A DNA stretch of 64,000 nt from Candidatus Micrarchaeota archaeon. Lineage in GTDB: Archaea > Micrarchaeota > Micrarchaeia > Anstonellales > Bilamarchaeaceae. Numbering within the stretch: the first letter of the stretch is position 1; every line of letters starts with the position of its first letter. The position numbers were made by a program. Of this stretch, positions 15,001 through 21,000 are shown piece by piece. The stretch covers positions 51,120 through 115,119 of the forward strand of contig JBBSVO010000003.1 of NCBI GenBank assembly GCA_038046805.1, in the 5' to 3' direction.

Positions 15001-18000
15001 ACCATCAAAATCAGCATTAGTTATTGTGGACATGAATAACGATCGAAAAGGCATTTTGCCAAATCGCGGTTGCCTGGAAACCGGGATCCATAGAGTGGTG
15101 GAGGTAATAAGCGCTGCAAGAAGAATGTGCATTCCTGTTTTACTCGTAACTTTGCCAGAGTATCCGTACATAATGCAGGAACTGTTGGAAGCCGCGGGCC
15201 CTAGTCCTAGAACAATGGTGAAAATCTATAGGAGCTGTTTTCTGGATCCGGAATTTGCAGAAATTATCAATCAATTTGCAATTGGCACCCTGATATTGGG
15301 GGGAACGAAGCGAAACAAATGTGTCCTGGCAACTGCAGAGCATGCGTTGCAATGCGGGTTTAAGATCATGACCTCGGATGAAATTCTTTTTCATGGCTTG
15401 GAAGATGACAGCCATACGATTGCACATGATGAACAAGGTTTTTATCAGAAAAGAACCGAATTTTATGAAACATCCAGAGAACTAATTTCAGCAATGGGAA
15501 GATTGTAATTCATCCTTCGAATTGAAGACGTCTGGTGAAAACAAAAGTTTATCTCGGAAAATAAGTTTGGAAATAAAAAACGTGCTACAAAAAAGATTGC
15601 AGCACGCAAAATATATTATTATTTCTTCTTGCCTTTCTTTTTTGCTTTCTTTTTTACCATTTTTTCACCGAATAAAAGCACACACGGAAAGTATTTATAT
15701 GCGGCAGTAAAAAAAAATAAAAAAATATTTTCAGAATCAGCGTCTTCCGCCAAATCGTCCCTGCCTTTGCCTGCCACCAAACCCATGACTTACAGGTCTC
15801 GGGCCCCTTGAACCTCTTGACCCAGGATGTTGGCCCATTCTTCGGGTTCTCTGAAATGCGTCAGTTTCAATAAAAGTAGTCGCCTTTCCTTTCTTCCCCA
15901 TTCTTCCGGTTCTTCCTATTCTGTGCAAATGAGTATCGCTATCTCTGGCTTCATCATAGTTTATTACATGCGCAATATCATCCACGTGCAGTCCTCTTGA
16001 AGCCACATCAGTAGCTACGAGAACCCGGAATCTGCCTTCATGAAAATCTCTCATGAGTCTTTCTCTTTTTTGCTGACGCATTCCGCCATGGAGAAAATCT
16101 GAACTTATATTCTGATCGCGAAGCTTTCTTCCGACGTATTCTGTTGCTCCCTGAGTTGCAACAAATATAAGCACTCGGGAACTAGGCTCCTGATGAAGGA
16201 TTTCAGTTAGCTTGAAGAATTTTTCACTTCTTGGTAATTTTATCACGTCCTCAGATATATCCTCCTTTTTTCCAACTTCGCCGAGCTCTATCAAAAGCGG
16301 GGACTGAAGATATCTACGGGAAATGTCCAGTACGTTTTTATCAAGAGTTGCCGAAAAAAGCATTGTCTGCCTGGTTTCGCTCACCGCAGAAAGTATTTTG
16401 GAGATGTCTTCCCTAAATCCCATGTCCAGCATTCTGTCTGCTTCGTCAAGAACAACTATATTGAAAACAGACAAGTCCAGGGTTTTCCTTTTATAGTGAT
16501 CAATCAGTCTTCCCGGAGTTGCAACTATGATTTCAAAACCTCGCGCAATCAATGCGAGTTGACGACCGATTTCTTCTCCACCATATACTGCATATACCCT
16601 GAACTTGTGGCCTGCAGCTATGGAGCGTAATTCCTTTGTTATCTGCAATGCAAGCTCTCGGGTTGGCGCTAGCACAAGCCCTTTTTTGGCATGTTTTGAA
16701 GCCGCAATTTGCTCTACCAGCCCTATTCCAAATGCTGCGGTTTTTCCGGTTCCTGTCTGGCTTCTTACCATGACATCTTCTCCGGCCAAAATCGGGGCAA
16801 GAGATTTTTCCTGTACTTCTGTTGGTTGGACGAAATTCATTGAATCCAACGCAGAGATTGTCCTACTGTCCAAACGCATATCACTAAATTTCATATATTT
16901 TCACCTTAGTTTAGATCTCAATTTCATCTATTCTAAACGAAGGTGTTCTTGGGAGGCACACTTCTAAATGAACAGAAAAAATAAGAGATTCTTATATTTT
17001 ATAAGTATATATACGTCAGATCCTGAATTTAAAGGTTCGTATTTCGCTTCGACCACACACGTGCAGCTAAATTAGCCTTCTTCCTGCAGTTTCTTCTTTA
17101 ATTTGTCGAGTTCTTCGTGTAAGGCGCGATTCTTTTTTAGAGGGTCATCTCTCGCCTTTGGTTCCAGCTCTTCGATCCTTCTCTTTATGTTTTGCAATTG
17201 CCTTCCCAGGTCTTTTTTGCTCTTACCCATAGGTATTATTGGAACAGAAAGGCGTTTAAATCATAAGGGCTTGCATCGCCTTAACCGCCATAGCGTGCGG
17301 AACAAATAAATGATCGTGATAATACGCGGAGACAGCATTAACCGGAATTCCGCTTTTTGCAAGTTTGGTTGTTATTGCTGCGATGAAACCTACAGCGGAA
17401 AGATCAGAATGGACCGTGAGCGTAATCAATGCCCAGGTCTCGGAATCGGAATATTTCAAATTGTTTTTGTCCGCAATTTTCTTTTCGATGATGAGGGTAA
17501 TGCCTTCGTCTTCGCGAAAAACTAATAATGGATTTAATTCCTCGCTGTGGGCTGCGAATTGATTTGGCTGAATCGAACAGAATACAAACTCACCATTCGC
17601 TAGCTTCGGGCGCATTGATTTGAGAAGAGTAGGCACGTCTGAAATTCCAGACATAGAATCAACCGTGAAACATTCAACTGTGGATATTAGGCTGAGCCGA
17701 TATTAAATATATCGCTATCCACTGCCTTGTCCGTTTCAAATCCCTCACGCAACCAGCTTTGGAGCATTGATTTTGCGCGCTGATACTGCTCCCTGCCGAC
17801 AACCACGTTTCCAATTGCATACCTCAAGTTCTTTGAATTGAAGCAAAACATTGAATCATGCACGTTCTCGCAATTATGGCAGAAATAACTGTCAGAGCAA
17901 TTTGAACTTGAATCAACCTCAAAACAGCGGGTTAGATTAAAGGAGGAATAACAATTTACGTTGAATGAGGAATTAAACGTGAATGCGCATCCGAAAACAT

Positions 18001-21000
18001 GGTCTGAACCGTTCGGCCAGGTGCAAAATGCGGAATCCTTGACATTAACGCAACCGAGTATGCTATAACAATTGGCGGAGTTTATTATTATCGGGCAGTT
18101 TGTTACGTTGCTGAAAACTCCGTCATGAAACTGGGCAGAAAGAAATGCGACGCCACTGAGAAGACCTGATACATTTGAAAAATCGAGTTTTTCCGCTTCG
18201 ATTTCGCCGAGTTTCTGGATTTCGCTTAATTGACTGGCTTCGGACAGGTTCACAAAGCGATTGCGGCTCTTATCAAACGCATGATAATTCTCGTAATTCG
18301 GAACAGTTGTTTTTCCGCTTCCTAGAACACTTTCAGTTTCGGCTACATTAATTATATGTCGCTTAAGCCATTCTGAATAATCGCAAACGCTGCCTGAAAG
18401 CGGCTTTCCAAAAATAAGAGATGCAGTTTCGGAGAATGCTTTTTCTATTTCTGGATTTAATCCGCTTTGTTCGGACGGTTTTGCAAAATTCGCAAGTTGA
18501 ACCAATGTATTTTTTTCTGGAGTACCGCATTCATTTACGATATCCGCAAGCGATGGGGCACGCTTTTTCTGCTTCAGGATATCACGAATCTGCGCGAGAA
18601 GGTGGCTTTTGATAGTCAAGTATTTTTCCTTTGGCAATGCGAGGTTTCCGATAACATTTCTCTTGGAACGCAAGTTAAACGAAAAAATGCAATCATTACA
18701 CCCCATCAGATTATATGTGTAATAACACTCCGAGGACATCCATGTAAGCCAGCCCTCAAATTTTCTTCCACCCTTTCCGTGCTGGTGACAACGTATGTCA
18801 TAATTGGAAAAAGACCCTACATTACACCCAAAGATATTTTCAGAATTCTTACAGATGGTAGAGTATGCAATATTCTTTGACTCCTGGATTCTCGCAGATT
18901 CGTAAACATAATAGCTATTGCTTACGCTCGAACTTTTTTCAACGAATTGCGATGTGCCGAGGATTATGTTTCCGGAGTAATAAATCCGCTCTCGCACGGC
19001 TTCGAGAATTGAATCAATATCCTTAGTGTCGTCTATGCAAAGAGGTTCAAACTTTCTTCCGAAATCTATTTCATCAAAGCTCATGTGCTTTGCGTTCTGC
19101 ATGTAATCTGTTGAGGAGAAAACAACTTCCTTTCCGGACAGACTAGACGTCCCCCTTAGCCTTGGCTGCTTAAGCTCCAAAAGCCAGTTCTCAAATTCCT
19201 TAAGCTCCCCGACTTCTCCTCCAAGAACTACCTTGCAGGTGCGGTTCCACTCGTTGTTTAGGTGTCCATAAATCATATCTTCTGGCATAATTCTATTGCG
19301 CCTCCGGAGTTATTTATATATTATCTTCCCCCTAGGGGGTCGTAGTAGGAAGATTAATAAAAATTACCAGAGAATAGAAACCTATGGACACGAGACTGCT
19401 TGAACAGATAGGACTTACCAAGGGGGAAAGTAGGGTTTACCTCTCGCTCCTTAAGCTTGGTAATTCTAAAACCGGGCAATTGGCATCGCTTGCGAGTGTT
19501 TCATCTTCGAAAGTTTACAAGATTCTTGACCGCCTTGAGAAAAAAGGGCTGGTTGGACACGTGATGAAAGGGAATATAAAATATTTCAGCTCCATGGAGC
19601 CGCGACGCATTTTGGATTATCTTGACGAAAAACGCTCAAAGCTTGAGCAGGACAGGGCACTTTTAGCGCAACTCGTACCTGAGCTGGAAAAACAGAAAAA
19701 AGCCGCGGGTCAAAAAACTGAGGTGACACTTTACGACGGTTACAAAGGAGTGGCAAATTTTTTCAGAAATATTGTTGATGAACTGAAGTTCGGAGACGAG
19801 TATTTCGTTATCGGAGCATATTATGGAAAGGAAGCACAGGACGAGATTACGGCCAGATGGAGGGAATTTTTCTATAAGCACCATCTGAGAAGAATTGCCA
19901 AAGGAATTAAAGTAAAGATGCTTGCAAACCACGACATCAAGGGAAAAATGGTACAGACAACACAACAAAAATCAGAGATACGCTATTTACCCCAGTACCT
20001 GATTACTAATATGGAAATCGTTTTCTATAATAACAAAGTCTTTATCGCTTTTTTTACCAGTGAACCAAAGGCATTTTTGCTGGAAAGCGAAGAGGCAGTG
20101 AAAAGCTTCAGGAAATATTTTGAGGTATTGTGGAGGATTGCAAAGCCCTGATTACATTCGTTCCCTGGCCGTATTGAGCCTGGCGATATTCGCGTCTGTC
20201 AGGGGAACAAGAATAAGGTTCTCGGTTACTCCCTGCATAAGACGGGTAACTTCTTCTGCTGCTTTTCTTTGTACAGTTGCGGGTCTGCCCGGCATGTAAT
20301 AGTATTCAAGCATTTCAATCAGTATGACCACTGCTTCGGCCTTGGTAAGCGTCATTCGGCCATCAAATGCTCTAAGATACATATGCAATTTAGATGGTTC
20401 GAGCCCTCGCGCGGCAGGTTGCCTGTAATCTATTGGAGTTCCATTCAAGTCTGCAAGCACTCCGCCACCATATTGGCCGATTCTGTGCAGTTCAAGATAC
20501 TTATCTGCCCCAATCTCCAGTTCGCCAAGGGCATATTTTGGCATTATTGAGCCCCTCTTTCCAGCGAAAATTCCGCACGCCCTTGCACTGAAAAGTGTTG
20601 CCTCGGCAAGAAGCGCCAAATCCACGCCGCGTGCTCGATAGTCTTCGACAACACCGAGATAACCAATAAACATTGTTCCTGATTTTGGCAGGATTCCGCC
20701 CGTGGTTAAACCAACTGGGGTTCCATCCTTGGCCATTGCACTGCACCAGAAAGAGGCATAACCATACTGTGTAATTCTGCTCTGGACTTCGTCAAGAAGA
20801 TAATCGAGGGTTGGACCGTGGTCTTCCCAGTCCGCCTCTCTGAAAACCTTTCTATAAACCGAATAGTAAACTAATGCAAAATCCTTCAAACTCTCGTCCA
20901 TATACCTGAGATTGTTTCTGAGCTTGTCCTCTGACCAGTCATTGTTTATTGCGAGTGTCAAAAATCTCTTTGTACGGGATACCTTATGTTCATCACGGGC

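Follow-up and report, generated by a model that had tools for sequence, protein, structure and literature searches.

A multicopy family of paired, predicted beta-solenoid modules in a Micrarchaeota genome, with adjacent regulators and a possible HerA/FtsK-type ATPase partner

The 64,000-nt stretch of a Candidatus Micrarchaeota genome analysed here (the window; contig JBBSVO010000003.1, positions 51,120 to 115,119) contains, at 17687..19288 on the minus strand, a gene (P0001) that is a genuine open reading frame of 533 aa, as the survey's finding had proposed. Translation and family membership identified P0001 as a fusion of two homologous modules of approximately 260 aa, the A (N-type) module first (residues 1-262; 18503..19288, minus strand) and the B (C-type) module second (residues 270-533; 17690..18481, minus strand); both were defined by alignments and by conservation over 263 A and 269 B modules. 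The A module carries the A-specific motif K89-D90-x-D92-S93 plus Y104-x-G106, and the B module carries the B-specific motif C446, C455, E457, D459, H471-N472-x-E474-N475, C482, N484, K486 and N487. The residues previously listed as invariant recurred in this larger alignment. The orthologue of P0001 at locus L046 is 77% identical and its synteny is kept. A gene encoding a 132-aa ACT-domain protein (17256..17654, minus strand; Pfam ACT_3 and ACT_7), found at the same position in L046, follows P0001 on its own strand after a gap of 32 bp and is possibly co-transcribed with it.

Divergent from P0001 is a gene encoding a TrmB-family transcription regulator (19384..20151, plus strand; Pfam TrmB, E 3.1e-14), which is 89% identical and in the same place at the L046 locus. 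The likely promoters of the two genes are a TATA-like AT-rich box that precedes the start codon of P0001 by 23-37 nt (19311..19325, minus strand; 14 of 15 positions invariant relative to L046) and a second such box upstream of the TrmB gene (19354..19366, plus strand; identical in L046). Between these divergent promoters lies a perfect 12-bp palindrome, CCCCCTAGGGGG (19328..19339), a putative TrmB operator that is identical in L046 and is nested in a larger inverted repeat (19323-19334 and 19343-19354). The palindrome is unique in the 1.2-Mb genome; it occurs once in the window, and none of 100 shuffles contained one match.

The window also includes a split A/B pair, recognized by blastp and alignment, in which the stop of the A-module gene L001 (255 aa; 7489..8256, plus strand) overlaps the start of the B-module gene L007 (294 aa; 8256..9140, plus strand) by one base. 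Immediately upstream of the pair is a gene for an HTH_10 regulator (6645..7400, plus strand; Pfam HTH_10, E 7.5e-19), and the interval between this gene and L001 contains a perfect 16-bp palindrome, ACCGCTGTACAGCGGT (7437..7452), a candidate operator that was likewise found once in the window and in none of 100 shuffles with one match. Its sequence differs from that of the operator-like palindrome of P0001. At 1..1568 (plus strand), blastp detected a further fused gene of the family, represented here by its 3' portion (full length 554 aa; contig C3, 51023-52687), which closes a four-gene tandem array that begins upstream of the window.

We searched 4387 six-frame ORFs of the 1.2-Mb assembly by blastp and additionally scanned all stop-to-stop frames with a profile. 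Blastp yielded 24 intact family genes at 15 loci, namely 12 fused genes (515-554 aa) and six adjacent N-half/C-half pairs (249-298 aa), and the profile scan added two remnants. One is a frame of 89 aa on C7; the other, a 41-aa relic in the window (49530..49652, minus strand; hmmsearch of stop-to-stop frames, E 2.6e-7), matches the C-terminal helix of a B module (profile states 219-254). The earlier count of 25 genes at 16 places was thus correct within one, and the family is the largest set of paralogues, as claimed; single linkage of 1260 crude genes gave a top component of 25 members (the 24 family genes and one that was not identified here), followed by components of 13 and 12. The fused paralogues are 33-42% identical to P0001 and the halves cross-match at 21-29%, in agreement with a description as two homologous halves, fused or split. 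For 21 of the 24 paralogues, a closer relative was found in another genome than in their own, which suggests that the copies are old; they are scattered among housekeeping genes. Expression is represented by one 350-nt contig in one RNA library.

Searches of curated libraries with P0001 gave no match, the lowest E values being 0.73 in Pfam, 0.2 in NCBIfam and 2 among PDB sequences, and PADLOC models matched none of 14 modules, as expected of the new, unannotated family that had been proposed. Among 8000 scored proteins, 558 relatives were found at E<=1e-3; none of them has a Pfam domain, and those with names all come from Micrarchaeota-type MAGs. An exhaustive homologue search gave another 1,346 weak matches outside those listed. 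Restriction to Micrarchaeota holds among the matches listed; the Atlas contains one bacteria-labelled look-alike cluster. Within the sample, the distribution was all-or-none, within genera too: the family is present, in 10-50 ancient copies per genome, in only 35 of 201 genomes (27 of the 152 that are at least 90% complete), and it cannot be called a hallmark of the phylum. The order of modules in 298 family proteins was NC in 253, N alone in 21, C alone in 20, NCC in two and NCN in two, and no protein had a CN, NN or CC arrangement. We read A-B as an obligate two-module protein, in which the order is always A then B.

AlphaFold2 models of the single halves had pLDDT values of 83.7 (A) and 82.6 (B) and a pTM of 0.84 each. 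Each module is predicted to comprise a small alpha/beta N-domain, a narrow beta-solenoid, a short beta-beta cap and a long C-terminal helix, with 12 residues per solenoid turn, of which every third (Cys, Ser, Ala or Val) would fill the core; the small and Cys core residues show periodicities of 12 and three residues. Foldseek returned no match at E<=1e-3 for either half and the best VIA-align Z scores were 6.1 (A) and 6.7 (B), so that the reported lack of a specific solved look-alike also applies to each half alone. A very narrow solenoid is shared with the thin beta-helices of TmAFP (PDB 1EZG), spruce budworm AFP (1M8N) and the Lolium ice-binding protein (3ULT). The best match of the A half was 3ult_B (Z 6.1, rmsd 2.6 over 97 residues), and that of the B half was 1ezg_A (Z 6.7 over 81 of its 82 residues), with an rmsd of 8.5 and with the reservation that a Z below 8 may reflect only a common arrangement. 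However, no sequence relation to antifreeze or ice-binding beta-helices was detectable, and the A/B solenoid differs in its setting: an alpha/beta N-domain flanks it on one side and a long helix on the other, and its module belongs to an obligate A-B pair whose predicted seam is polar and conserved. No library or fold match gave an indication of the biochemical function.

The Cys content of the family proteins is 2.3-6.3% (3.9% in P0001), which makes them only moderately rich in Cys, and the B module has three Cys and one His with a conservation of 92% or more. These features would fit the Cys-based metal-binding module that the survey's finding had offered as one possibility. However, the well-conserved Cys (states 165, 174 and 201) occupy the every-third-residue core positions (state divisible by 3), whereas H190 is predicted to lie at the surface and in the interface, so they do not form one cluster; moreover, Ser, Ala or Val freely replaces Cys at the majority of its positions, and the presence of Cys at i is negatively correlated with its presence at i+6 (mean phi -0.19 to -0.32). 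Since i/i+6 pairing is lacking, there are no cross-coil disulfides. In this respect the modules differ from TmAFP-type AFPs, as they do in being parts of soluble, cytoplasmic proteins; the maximum 19-aa hydropathy of the A-B proteins is 1.27 and a signal peptide is absent. Their pI of 5.2-8.5 gives no hint of nucleic-acid binding.

Complex prediction with L001 and L007 gave ipSAE values of 0.87, 0.86 and 0.85 in three runs and 0.00 in all three controls, in keeping with the earlier term "heterodimer-like" (0.86 versus 0.00 for the best control). The mark used in calibration was reached by 116 of 157 solved complexes and by two of 215 mismatched pairs, and a score due to a memorised structure is unlikely because no similar complex has been solved. 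Approximately 200 contacts were predicted, at least 91% of which were shared between runs, and the partner pLDDT was 84. According to the model, A and B, whether fused or from adjacent genes, pack as an antiparallel pseudo-two-fold heterodimer in which the C-terminal end of each solenoid rests on the N-domain of the other module. Both solenoid ends would thus be capped (by the N-domain and by the beta-beta cap together with the helix) and would take part in A-B contact, which would block end-to-end stacking. This argues against the other half of the metal-or-scaffold proposal, a bactofilin-like polymer-forming cytoskeletal element. The solenoid is generically similar to other beta-helices, and bactofilin BacA (PDB 2N3D) also has a beta-helical core; however, BacA ranked only 46th (Z 3.0), no Pfam bactofilin match was found, the A/B rung has 12 residues, and the capped ends are not free for polymerisation. 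A cytoskeletal filament would also not be expected to have some 24 paralogues under separate regulation or an ATPase as its partner (see below), and we regard the scaffold-or-metal proposal as very improbable.

The predicted interface is pseudo-symmetric, 48 profile positions being common to the 66 of A and the 64 of B. In the complex, Y102 of A (98% conserved) contacts H190 (99%), N191 (100%) and F202 of B, and further interface residues are K87 (95%) and D88 (94%) of A and R66, D178 and N203 (93-100%) of B. The equivalent positions of the opposite module are variable, with F in 58%, E in 57% and T in 39% of B modules at the A-motif positions, and Y in 32%, N in 34%, N in 70% and W in 60% of A modules at the B-motif positions. 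Single changes aside, the motifs are kept in 18 of 18 A and 18 of 18 B modules of this genome, and across genomes 87% of modules of either type deviate at no more than one motif position. D90 and S91 of A and E176, E193, N194, K205 and N206 of B are conserved and polar though outside the predicted contact list; all of these except E176 probably lie beside the seam. Near-invariant polar residues contributed by A and B alike occur at only one of the two seams, which suggests that there is one composite site with a function, presumably ligand binding or catalysis, and that the symmetric seam has degenerated. The conserved seam could also be a purely structural dimerisation hot spot.

Immediate neighbours of family genes elsewhere (n=135) differed from distal genes (n=150) in their content of HTH_10 (12 versus 0), TrmB (10 versus 0) and double-AsnC regulators (7 versus 1). 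Together with a HerA/FtsK-like ATPase, these regulators made up 40 of 135 immediate neighbours and two of 150 distal controls, at odds with the statement that no neighbour gene recurs. This genome has seven double-AsnC genes, four of them no more than 810 bp from family genes. We infer that the regulator next to each family copy provides dedicated, paralogue-specific control. Adjacent regulators with their operators, the polar site conserved in every paralogue and the location of copies among housekeeping genes would all suit soluble proteins that act alone, as enzymes or by binding ligands, and that have diversified in specificity around a single chemistry; the ATPase would then merely belong to the same variable gene pool. 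That the ATPase accounts for only 11 of 135 immediate neighbours (distal genes, 1 of 150, of a different type), the majority of copies lying far from it, favours this explanation and counts against a link with the ATPase.

Nevertheless, ATPase and family co-occur almost perfectly, contrary to the view that the family has no partner. The ATPase orthologue group, with 1-3 matches per genome, is present in 36 of the same 201 genomes; 33 genomes have both, two the family only (G150 and G167), three the ATPase only (G004, G012 and G032) and 163 neither (Fisher p 5.7e-32, which is merely indicative because the genomes are kin). The concordance includes dispersed copies and extends within genera, four polymorphic genera being fully concordant (with/without: g3, 3/3; g4, 2/1; g5, 3/8; g7, 1/3). 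HTH_10 regulators, taken as a control, were present in 18 of the 35 genomes with the family and in 21 of the 166 without it, and showed no comparable concordance. Moreover, the ATPase gene in this genome ends 1 nt before a family gene, in an operon-like abutment, and in other genomes it is embedded within family arrays. Stand-alone enzymes unlinked to the ATPase therefore appear unlikely.

In type VII secretion, an FtsK-like ATPase (EccC/EssC) goes together with substrates that are Esx or PE/PPE pairs forming heterodimers. By analogy, the A-B heterodimers might be a repertoire of substrates or effectors that the ATPase recognises and moves out of the cell or into the host, with which paired or fused genes, the predicted obligate heterodimer, products without a signal peptide and many paralogues per few ATPase copies would agree, as would weak ATPase matches to TraD, VirB4 and EccCb models and to a TrwB/VirD4-like plasmid protein. 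Micrarchaeota have also been described as mostly host-dependent (PMC12892359), which would suit such export. However, the ATPase here has no transmembrane segment, the neighbour survey found no recurrent membrane-protein gene beside it, and its matches to HerA, CedD, TraD and EccC models cover little beyond the P-loop and fall far under curated cut-offs (e.g. 31 bits versus 600; EccCb, 18-20 bits versus 346). The cargo would consist of folded proteins of about 60 kDa, with a solenoid rather than a helical hairpin, and an inter-module site that is invariant throughout the paralogues would be more typical of an enzyme than of a cargo set. Per-paralogue regulators are also not known from type VII-like secretion systems, and we consider export of the A-B proteins rather improbable.

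Our tentative preference, held at somewhat less than even confidence, is for old, individually regulated A-B modules working with one shared HerA/FtsK-type motor. The A-B proteins and the soluble, low-copy ATPase would form one system, in which A-B dimers serve as interchangeable subunits, either effectors or determinants of specificity, that bind to a hexameric motor or are powered by it; the TrmB, HTH_10 or double-Lrp/AsnC regulator next to a paralogue would switch on that paralogue via a palindromic operator of its own. The substrate of such a machine might be an intracellular nucleic acid or a nucleotide-like molecule, in conflict and defence or in DNA transactions. HerA ATPases are combined with effectors in the conflict systems SIR2-HerA and DUF4297-HerA, and archaea have HerA-NurA. 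Common to these systems and the A-B family are a HerA/FtsK-clade P-loop ATPase genetically coupled to a non-ATPase partner and a patchy, all-or-none distribution among close relatives; the ATPase here weakly matches HerA_antiphage and PADLOC HerA/mad8 models, with scores far under curated cut-offs (20-26 bits versus 800). In contrast to those systems, the partner is a predicted solenoid heterodimer that PADLOC does not match, and a defence system would not usually have so many ancient paralogues, each with a regulator of its own, dispersed in the midst of housekeeping genes. The dozens of copies under separate regulation, nearly always accompanied by one motor ATPase, point to an undescribed molecular machine in some tiny symbiotic archaea. 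In G042 and G104, the weakest family matches coincide with stop-interrupted ATPase genes.

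The gene P0001 (window 17687-19288, minus strand) is an intact ORF that encodes a 533-aa protein, in which an N-type (A) module is followed by a C-type (B) module. It matched no curated family, the best E values being 0.73 in Pfam, 0.2 in NCBIfam and 2 among PDB sequences; at E≤10, Pfam returned nothing beyond a chance gp350 hit. A blastp search against the 4387 six-frame ORFs of its own 1.2-Mb, 16-contig assembly identified 24 intact family genes spread over 15 loci: 12 fused genes (515-554 aa) and half-size genes (249-298 aa) arranged as six adjacent pairs. Two further remnants were detected by a profile scan of all stop-to-stop frames. 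Besides P0001, the window holds the 3' part of a fused paralogue (window 1-1568), a split pair (window 7489-8256 and 8256-9140) and one of the two remnants, a relic at window 49530-49652. The core observation of the survey's finding, a large unannotated family of fused and split paralogues, was thus confirmed. Among 1260 crudely called genes, it was the largest single-linkage family of the genome, with 24 family genes in a top component of 25 members; the runners-up had 13 and 12. Family genes make up about 2% of the 1.2-Mb genome, yet they are unnamed in databases; such organisms are under strong pressure to shed genes. For 21 of the 24 paralogues, the closest relative lay in a foreign genome and not in the source genome, even though the comparison set favoured relatives of P0001; the copies are thus old and individually maintained. 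Their neighbours are mostly housekeeping genes (tRNA synthetases, SRP54, SecDF, ABCE1 and an Obg-like GTPase), so the copies do not lie in an obvious mobile island.

The A and B halves are homologous end to end, with 19-26% identity. Module order was strict: 253 of 298 family proteins had the order N-C, 21 had N alone, 20 had C alone and four had three modules, and none of the 298 had a C-N, N-N or C-C arrangement. The best recurrent weak Pfam hit among 84 members was DUF6253 (6/84, E≥0.035), which is meaningless, and none of 14 modules matched PADLOC at E≤1.

AlphaFold2 models of the single halves (pLDDT 83.7 and 82.6; pTM 0.84 for both) predicted helices and a small hairpin, about 110 residues of very short strands, two short strands and a long helix. 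Foldseek found no match in the PDB at E≤1e-3 for either half. With a Foldseek-independent aligner, the A half aligned best with 3ult_B, an ice-binding protein of ryegrass (Z 6.1; 97 residues at rmsd 2.6), and the B half with 1ezg_A, an antifreeze protein of a beetle (Z 6.7; 81 residues at rmsd 8.5). Both matches are generic solenoids with no specific solved relative among them; the earlier statement that the family has no specific solved look-alike therefore stands after a search with single halves, a gap that had been named at the time. The occupancy of Cys and small residues showed autocorrelation peaks at lags 3 and 12, and the family thus resembles TmAFP, the type of the B-half match, in its 12-residue coil. 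TmAFP-type helices carry cross-coil disulfides between Cys six residues apart, whereas in the family the occupancies of Cys at i and i+6 were negatively correlated (mean phi -0.32 for A and -0.19 for B). The two patterns together indicate that the Cys pack into the core of the 12-residue coil without forming cross-coil disulfides, and a disulfide-stapled coil was rejected. TmAFP-type proteins are also secreted and have a flat, Thr-rich ice-binding face; unlike them, the family proteins have no hydrophobic segment of signal-peptide or transmembrane strength (maximum hydropathy 1.27). They contain 2.3-6.3% Cys and have pI values of 5.2-8.5; judged from charge, this range gives no signal of a DNA mimic or DNA binder. 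The fold class, a thin 12-residue beta-helix, is already known, and the novelty lies in the family and its genetic partnership.

To characterize conservation, 263 A and 269 B modules were aligned to one profile. About a dozen positions were at least 85% conserved in both module types (for example L32, S44, E72, G109, K136, F151-G152, E176, F200, F202, N213 and K225 in profile numbering). The A modules had a near-invariant set of their own (K87, D88, D90, S91, Y102, G104, C195 and others), as had the B modules, at 88-100% (R66, C165, C174, D178, H190, N191, E193, N194, C201, N203, K205 and N206; in P0001 numbering C446, C455, D459, H471, N472, E474, N475, C482, N484, K486 and N487). These motifs were kept, bar single changes, in all 18 A and all 18 B modules of the source genome, and across genomes 87% of the modules of each type had at most one deviating motif position.

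Complex prediction with the window's split pair, using a separate alignment for each chain, gave ipSAE values of 0.87, 0.86 and 0.85, versus 0.00 in all three controls. The predicted complex has about 200 contacts, with at least 91% contact agreement between runs and a partner pLDDT of 84. In calibration, the mark was reached by 116 of 157 solved complexes and by 2 of 215 mismatched pairs; as no similar complex has been solved, the score is unlikely to reflect memorization by the predictor. Together with the strict A-B order, this result bears out, as a prediction, the description of the two halves as heterodimer-like. The predicted contacts involve 66 profile positions in A and 64 in B, of which 48 are common to both chains, which makes the interface pseudo-two-fold. 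In each solenoid, the cap and the C-terminal coils (states 200-214) are predicted to rest on the partner's N-domain (states about 57-106). At one seam, Y102 of A is predicted to contact H190, N191 and F202 of B, with K87 and D88 of A and R66, D178 and N203 of B as further interface residues. The other seam is variable (in B, F, E and T in 58, 57 and 39% of modules; in A, Y, N, N and W in 32, 34, 70 and 60%). Further invariant polar residues lie outside the predicted contact list, namely D90 and S91 of A and E176, E193, N194, K205 and N206 of B. When a heterodimer has retained only one out of two symmetric sites of its ancestor, this usually points to a single functional site. From the model we infer that the conserved seam may form one composite functional site, for binding or catalysis.

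The idea of a cytoskeletal (bactofilin-like) or metal-binding scaffold was weighed against these features. In the structural comparison with the B half, bactofilin BacA (2n3d) scored a Z of 3.0 over 74 residues, at rank 46. The bactofilin domain model (Pfam PF04519) had no sequence match from P0001 and was absent from the recurrent weak hits of the 84 members. Both solenoid ends are predicted to be capped and engaged in the A-B interface. Candidate metal ligands exist in the B module (C165 in 92%, C174 in 96%, C201 in 99% and H190 in 99%); the conserved Cys are core ladder positions, and H190 is a surface or interface position. In the A module, only C195 (93%) is kept among the candidate Cys ligands. 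We regard a cytoskeletal or metal-scaffold role as very improbable.

In the source genome, a double Lrp/AsnC-type wHTH protein of about 330 aa is encoded 57-810 bp from family genes at four loci, out of seven such genes genome-wide; each of the two HTH_10 genes is at most 1.4 kb away from a family gene, and a TrmB gene is divergent from P0001. We took the 135 non-family genes of at least 100 aa that directly adjoin family genes at 74 loci of other genomes (the best 80 of 415 stretches) and compared them with 150 random draws from 296 genes of at least 100 aa located at least three genes away at the same loci. The immediate neighbours included 12 HTH_10, 10 TrmB and seven double-AsnC genes and 11 HerA/DUF87+TrwB-type ATPases; the controls included no HTH_10 or TrmB gene, one double-AsnC gene and one ATPase, a different, 337-aa TraG-like protein. 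Regulators and ATPase thus accounted for 40 of 135 neighbours versus 2 of 150 controls (Fisher p 1.1e-12, indicative only, as the loci are kin), and the view that no neighbour gene recurs had to be given up. Each type had a stereotyped position: TrmB and double-AsnC genes divergently upstream of the family gene, HTH_10 genes directly upstream on the same strand, and the ATPase within or abutting family-gene arrays.

The control region of P0001 was compared with that of an orthologous locus (L046), in which the order ADH-TrmB-family-ACT-DEAD helicase is kept with protein identities of 75-94%. Conservation is higher in the 95 bp that separate P0001 from TrmB than in the coding flanks. In this region, two AT-rich TATA-like boxes in opposite orientation flank the perfect palindrome CCCCCTAGGGGG (window 19328-19339), which is unique in the genome. 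At the split pair, the region separating the A gene from the HTH_10 gene contains another perfect palindrome of different sequence, the 16-mer ACCGCTGTACAGCGGT (window 7437-7452). These sequences suggest that every paralogue may have its own operator and its own regulator. A 343-aa gene without a Pfam match (window 20152-21183, minus strand), located between TrmB and the alcohol-dehydrogenase-like gene, is missing from the otherwise syntenic L046, reflecting an insertion in the window or a deletion in L046. The flanking ACT gene was found in two of five searched genomes, both lacking the family, with 32-40% identity and no shared neighbours, and was uninformative on TrmB loss.

In one aquifer metatranscriptome, a 350-nt contig was identical to window 17968-18317, inside P0001. 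For window 15000-22000, the same metatranscriptome yielded a fifth of the sampled words, and most of this 7-kb stretch, including the rest of P0001, was without contigs, an absence that carries no weight. Since RNA libraries can contain DNA, the contig is only a weak hint that P0001 is expressed. Other difference-free contigs covered the DEAD-box helicase gene (16380-16531), the junction of TrmB and the 343-aa gene (20116-20358) and the ADH-like gene (21170-21374 and 21545-21934).

A gene for a 700-aa HerA/FtsK-like ATPase of the source genome (contig C2 39384-41486) stops 1 nt before a family gene. Twelve neighbouring ATPases formed one tight orthologous group (43-47% identical), with a core of about 560 aa that has many invariant residues and a low-complexity tail that is rich in Pro, Glu and Lys and varies greatly in length, total protein lengths being 684 to 919 aa (alignment including L031:1166-3265, a related locus). 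They have no transmembrane segment (maximum hydropathy 1.46), and membrane anchoring was rejected on that ground. Scores against curated families were far below the cut-offs: about 31 bits for CedD (cut-off 600), 20-26 bits for NCBIfam HerA_antiphage (800-850) and 18.6-20 bits for EccCb (346.55), with TraD, VirB4 and EccCb all weaker than HerA_antiphage. PADLOC HerA and mad8 matched over the P-loop region at E values of 1e-7 to 7e-12 (mad8, 7e-12), and HerA chains of the PDB at about 1e-3. By sequence, the group belongs to the HerA/FtsK superfamily and falls outside every curated family. It had no match in viral contigs or phages, and the single plasmid match (Sulfitobacter, 25% identity) had an uninformative context.

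The ATPase group was present in 36 of 201 sampled genomes, mostly as one match and at most as three. Both family and ATPase were found in 33 genomes, the family only in two (G150 and G167, both fragmented assemblies), the ATPase only in three (G004, G012 and G032, of which G032 retains a remnant of a family gene) and neither in 163. In the four polymorphic genera (g3, g4, g5 and g7), all 24 genomes were concordant (nine with both, 15 with neither). Two genomes (G042 and G104) had weak family matches only, and their ATPase genes were broken by stops. As a control, HTH_10 occurred in 39 genomes, comprising 18 of 35 family-positive and 21 of 166 family-negative ones; shared ancestry alone therefore probably does not yield the concordance of family and ATPase. 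A composite site for catalysis would suit A-B proteins that are stand-alone enzymes, their link to the ATPase being merely genomic; in view of the concordance and of the position of the ATPase gene in family-gene arrays, we consider this unlikely.

Relatives of the family were sought by several routes. A word-indexed search gave 558 relatives at E≤1e-3 among 8000 scored; among the matches listed, all named ones were Micrarchaeota-type MAGs and none had a Pfam domain. A search for shorter relatives gave 158 matches, with names again solely from Micrarchaeota, and a search for longer ones scored 7999 proteins without a fused form above 933 aa, a negative of little weight. When one genome was scanned for each prokaryotic species, 415 stretches were confirmed; among the 74 loci in the best 80 of these, 62 were labelled Micrarchaeota, Micrarchaeia or Anstonellaceae, five were 'uncultured archaeon LFW-...' MAGs, five 'MAG: archaeon' and two 'Candidatus ainarchaeum sp.'. 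LFW-35 and LFW-283_2 are assigned to the order Anstonellales in PMC8561730. An exhaustive profile search of 1.84 billion representatives found 332 clusters at E≤1e-30, a number that rose to 775 at ≤1e-10 and to 2121 at ≤1e-3, so the family is small globally; the weak tail of 1,346 hits could include distant relatives, bacterial ones among them. One lead to a candidate bacterial relative is a 236-aa look-alike cluster of the ESM Atlas, auto-named 'Caib/baif family protein' (feature score 0.94-0.95; TM 0.81/0.90 against the B half) and labelled 'Bacteria 75%', with phylum known for just 4 of 67 members. A Peregrinibacteria cluster of 578 aa is another such candidate. P0001 had no tblastn match in phages or plasmids, and the module had none in viral contigs. 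We found no description of the family in the papers searched on Micrarchaeota, DPANN archaea and Anstonellales, among them PMC12892359 and PMC8561730.

The family was present in 35 of the 201 genomes and in 27 of the 152 that are at least 90% complete. It was concentrated in the window's own order, occurring in 17 of 36 genomes of the window's family (f1), 9 of 14 of f2 and 3 of 8 of f6; it was missing from all 56 genomes of f10 and present in one of 36 of f11, which does not agree with its being a hallmark of the phylum. Presence was all-or-none even inside genera, and carriers were mostly multi-copy, with up to 53 first-look candidates in one 1.5-Mb genome. A re-check at E≤0.01 of five family-lacking genomes (92-95% complete) left four empty and one with a 33-residue remnant-like match. 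Such a match to the module N-terminus lies at G032:C23:23102-23200 (minus strand; E 9.9e-5); the ATPase is present in this genome, and an intact family gene is not. The all-or-none pattern among congeneric species is the mark of a dispensable accessory system, and it matters because such systems are the usual place of functions in symbiont-host or virus-host interaction. To our knowledge, almost nothing is known on such accessory systems in DPANN archaea.

A system accounts for the data better than a scaffold does. In it, a single soluble motor of HerA/FtsK type, in few copies, would work with a set of old A-B heterodimers that have a common composite site, differ elsewhere and have a dedicated transcription factor each, the whole set being present or absent as a unit. 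Our favoured reading, held tentatively and at a little under even confidence, is that the A-B dimers are interchangeable effector or specificity subunits of the motor and work on an intracellular, nucleic-acid or nucleotide-like substrate. The system differs from HerA-associated anti-phage systems in that its ATPase scores under the curated HerA cut-off and its solenoid partner has no known effector domain (SIR2, nuclease and the like). It resembles the Esx pairs of type VII secretion in its paired genes, strict A-B order and predicted heterodimer, and the dimers might accordingly be exported substrates of a secretion ATPase; the ATPase, unlike that of type VII secretion, has no transmembrane segment and is far under the EccCb cut-off, and we think export improbable. 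For each of the comparison groups (bactofilins, antifreeze proteins, HerA defence systems and type VII secretion), at least one tested defining feature was missing here.

Beyond the subunit reading, it is conceivable, if rather doubtful, that the genes encode an undescribed archaeal machine, in which a HerA/FtsK-type hexameric motor is served by 10-50 alternative solenoid-heterodimer 'cartridges' under their own transcription factors, retargetable and gained or lost whole. Each cartridge would carry the same composite active site and differ in its surface. If so, one motor could be retargeted to many substrates, such as nucleic acids of foreign or host origin or proteins delivered to the host, and the machine would be gained and lost as a unit between closely related Micrarchaeota. 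With a predicted heterodimer and its putative composite site, a tie to an ATPase and a probable regulator and operator for each copy, testable hypotheses can now be framed for an unknown family.

Several other features were observed at family loci. The seven fused double Lrp/AsnC paralogues of about 330 aa lie on contigs C2, C3, C6 and C7 of the source genome (for example C3 206240-207226 and, in the window, 41909-42931, equivalent to C3 93028-94050); four adjoin solenoid genes, and several have a sub-threshold match to the NirDL-like (siroheme decarboxylase) HTH model. On C6 (197592-200028) and C7 (2144-4029), a radical-SAM gene followed by TrmB lies 2.5-3.5 kb from two split solenoid pairs, both of which also have a divergent double-AsnC gene; this recurrence may reflect duplication of a larger module. 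In one Micrarchaeota MAG, a 238-aa reverse-transcriptase (RVT_1) fragment lies directly 5' of a family gene (L081:4431-5144), and at another locus an intein with a LAGLIDADG homing-endonuclease domain (L095:11593-12771) is encoded in a gene some 5 kb away from a family member. VapB-like/PIN or PIN genes of toxin-antitoxin type adjoin family genes at three loci (source genome C4 39639-40254, corresponding to L040:4216-4828; L049:5287-5742; L052:6769-7206) and account for 2 of the 135 immediate neighbours elsewhere.
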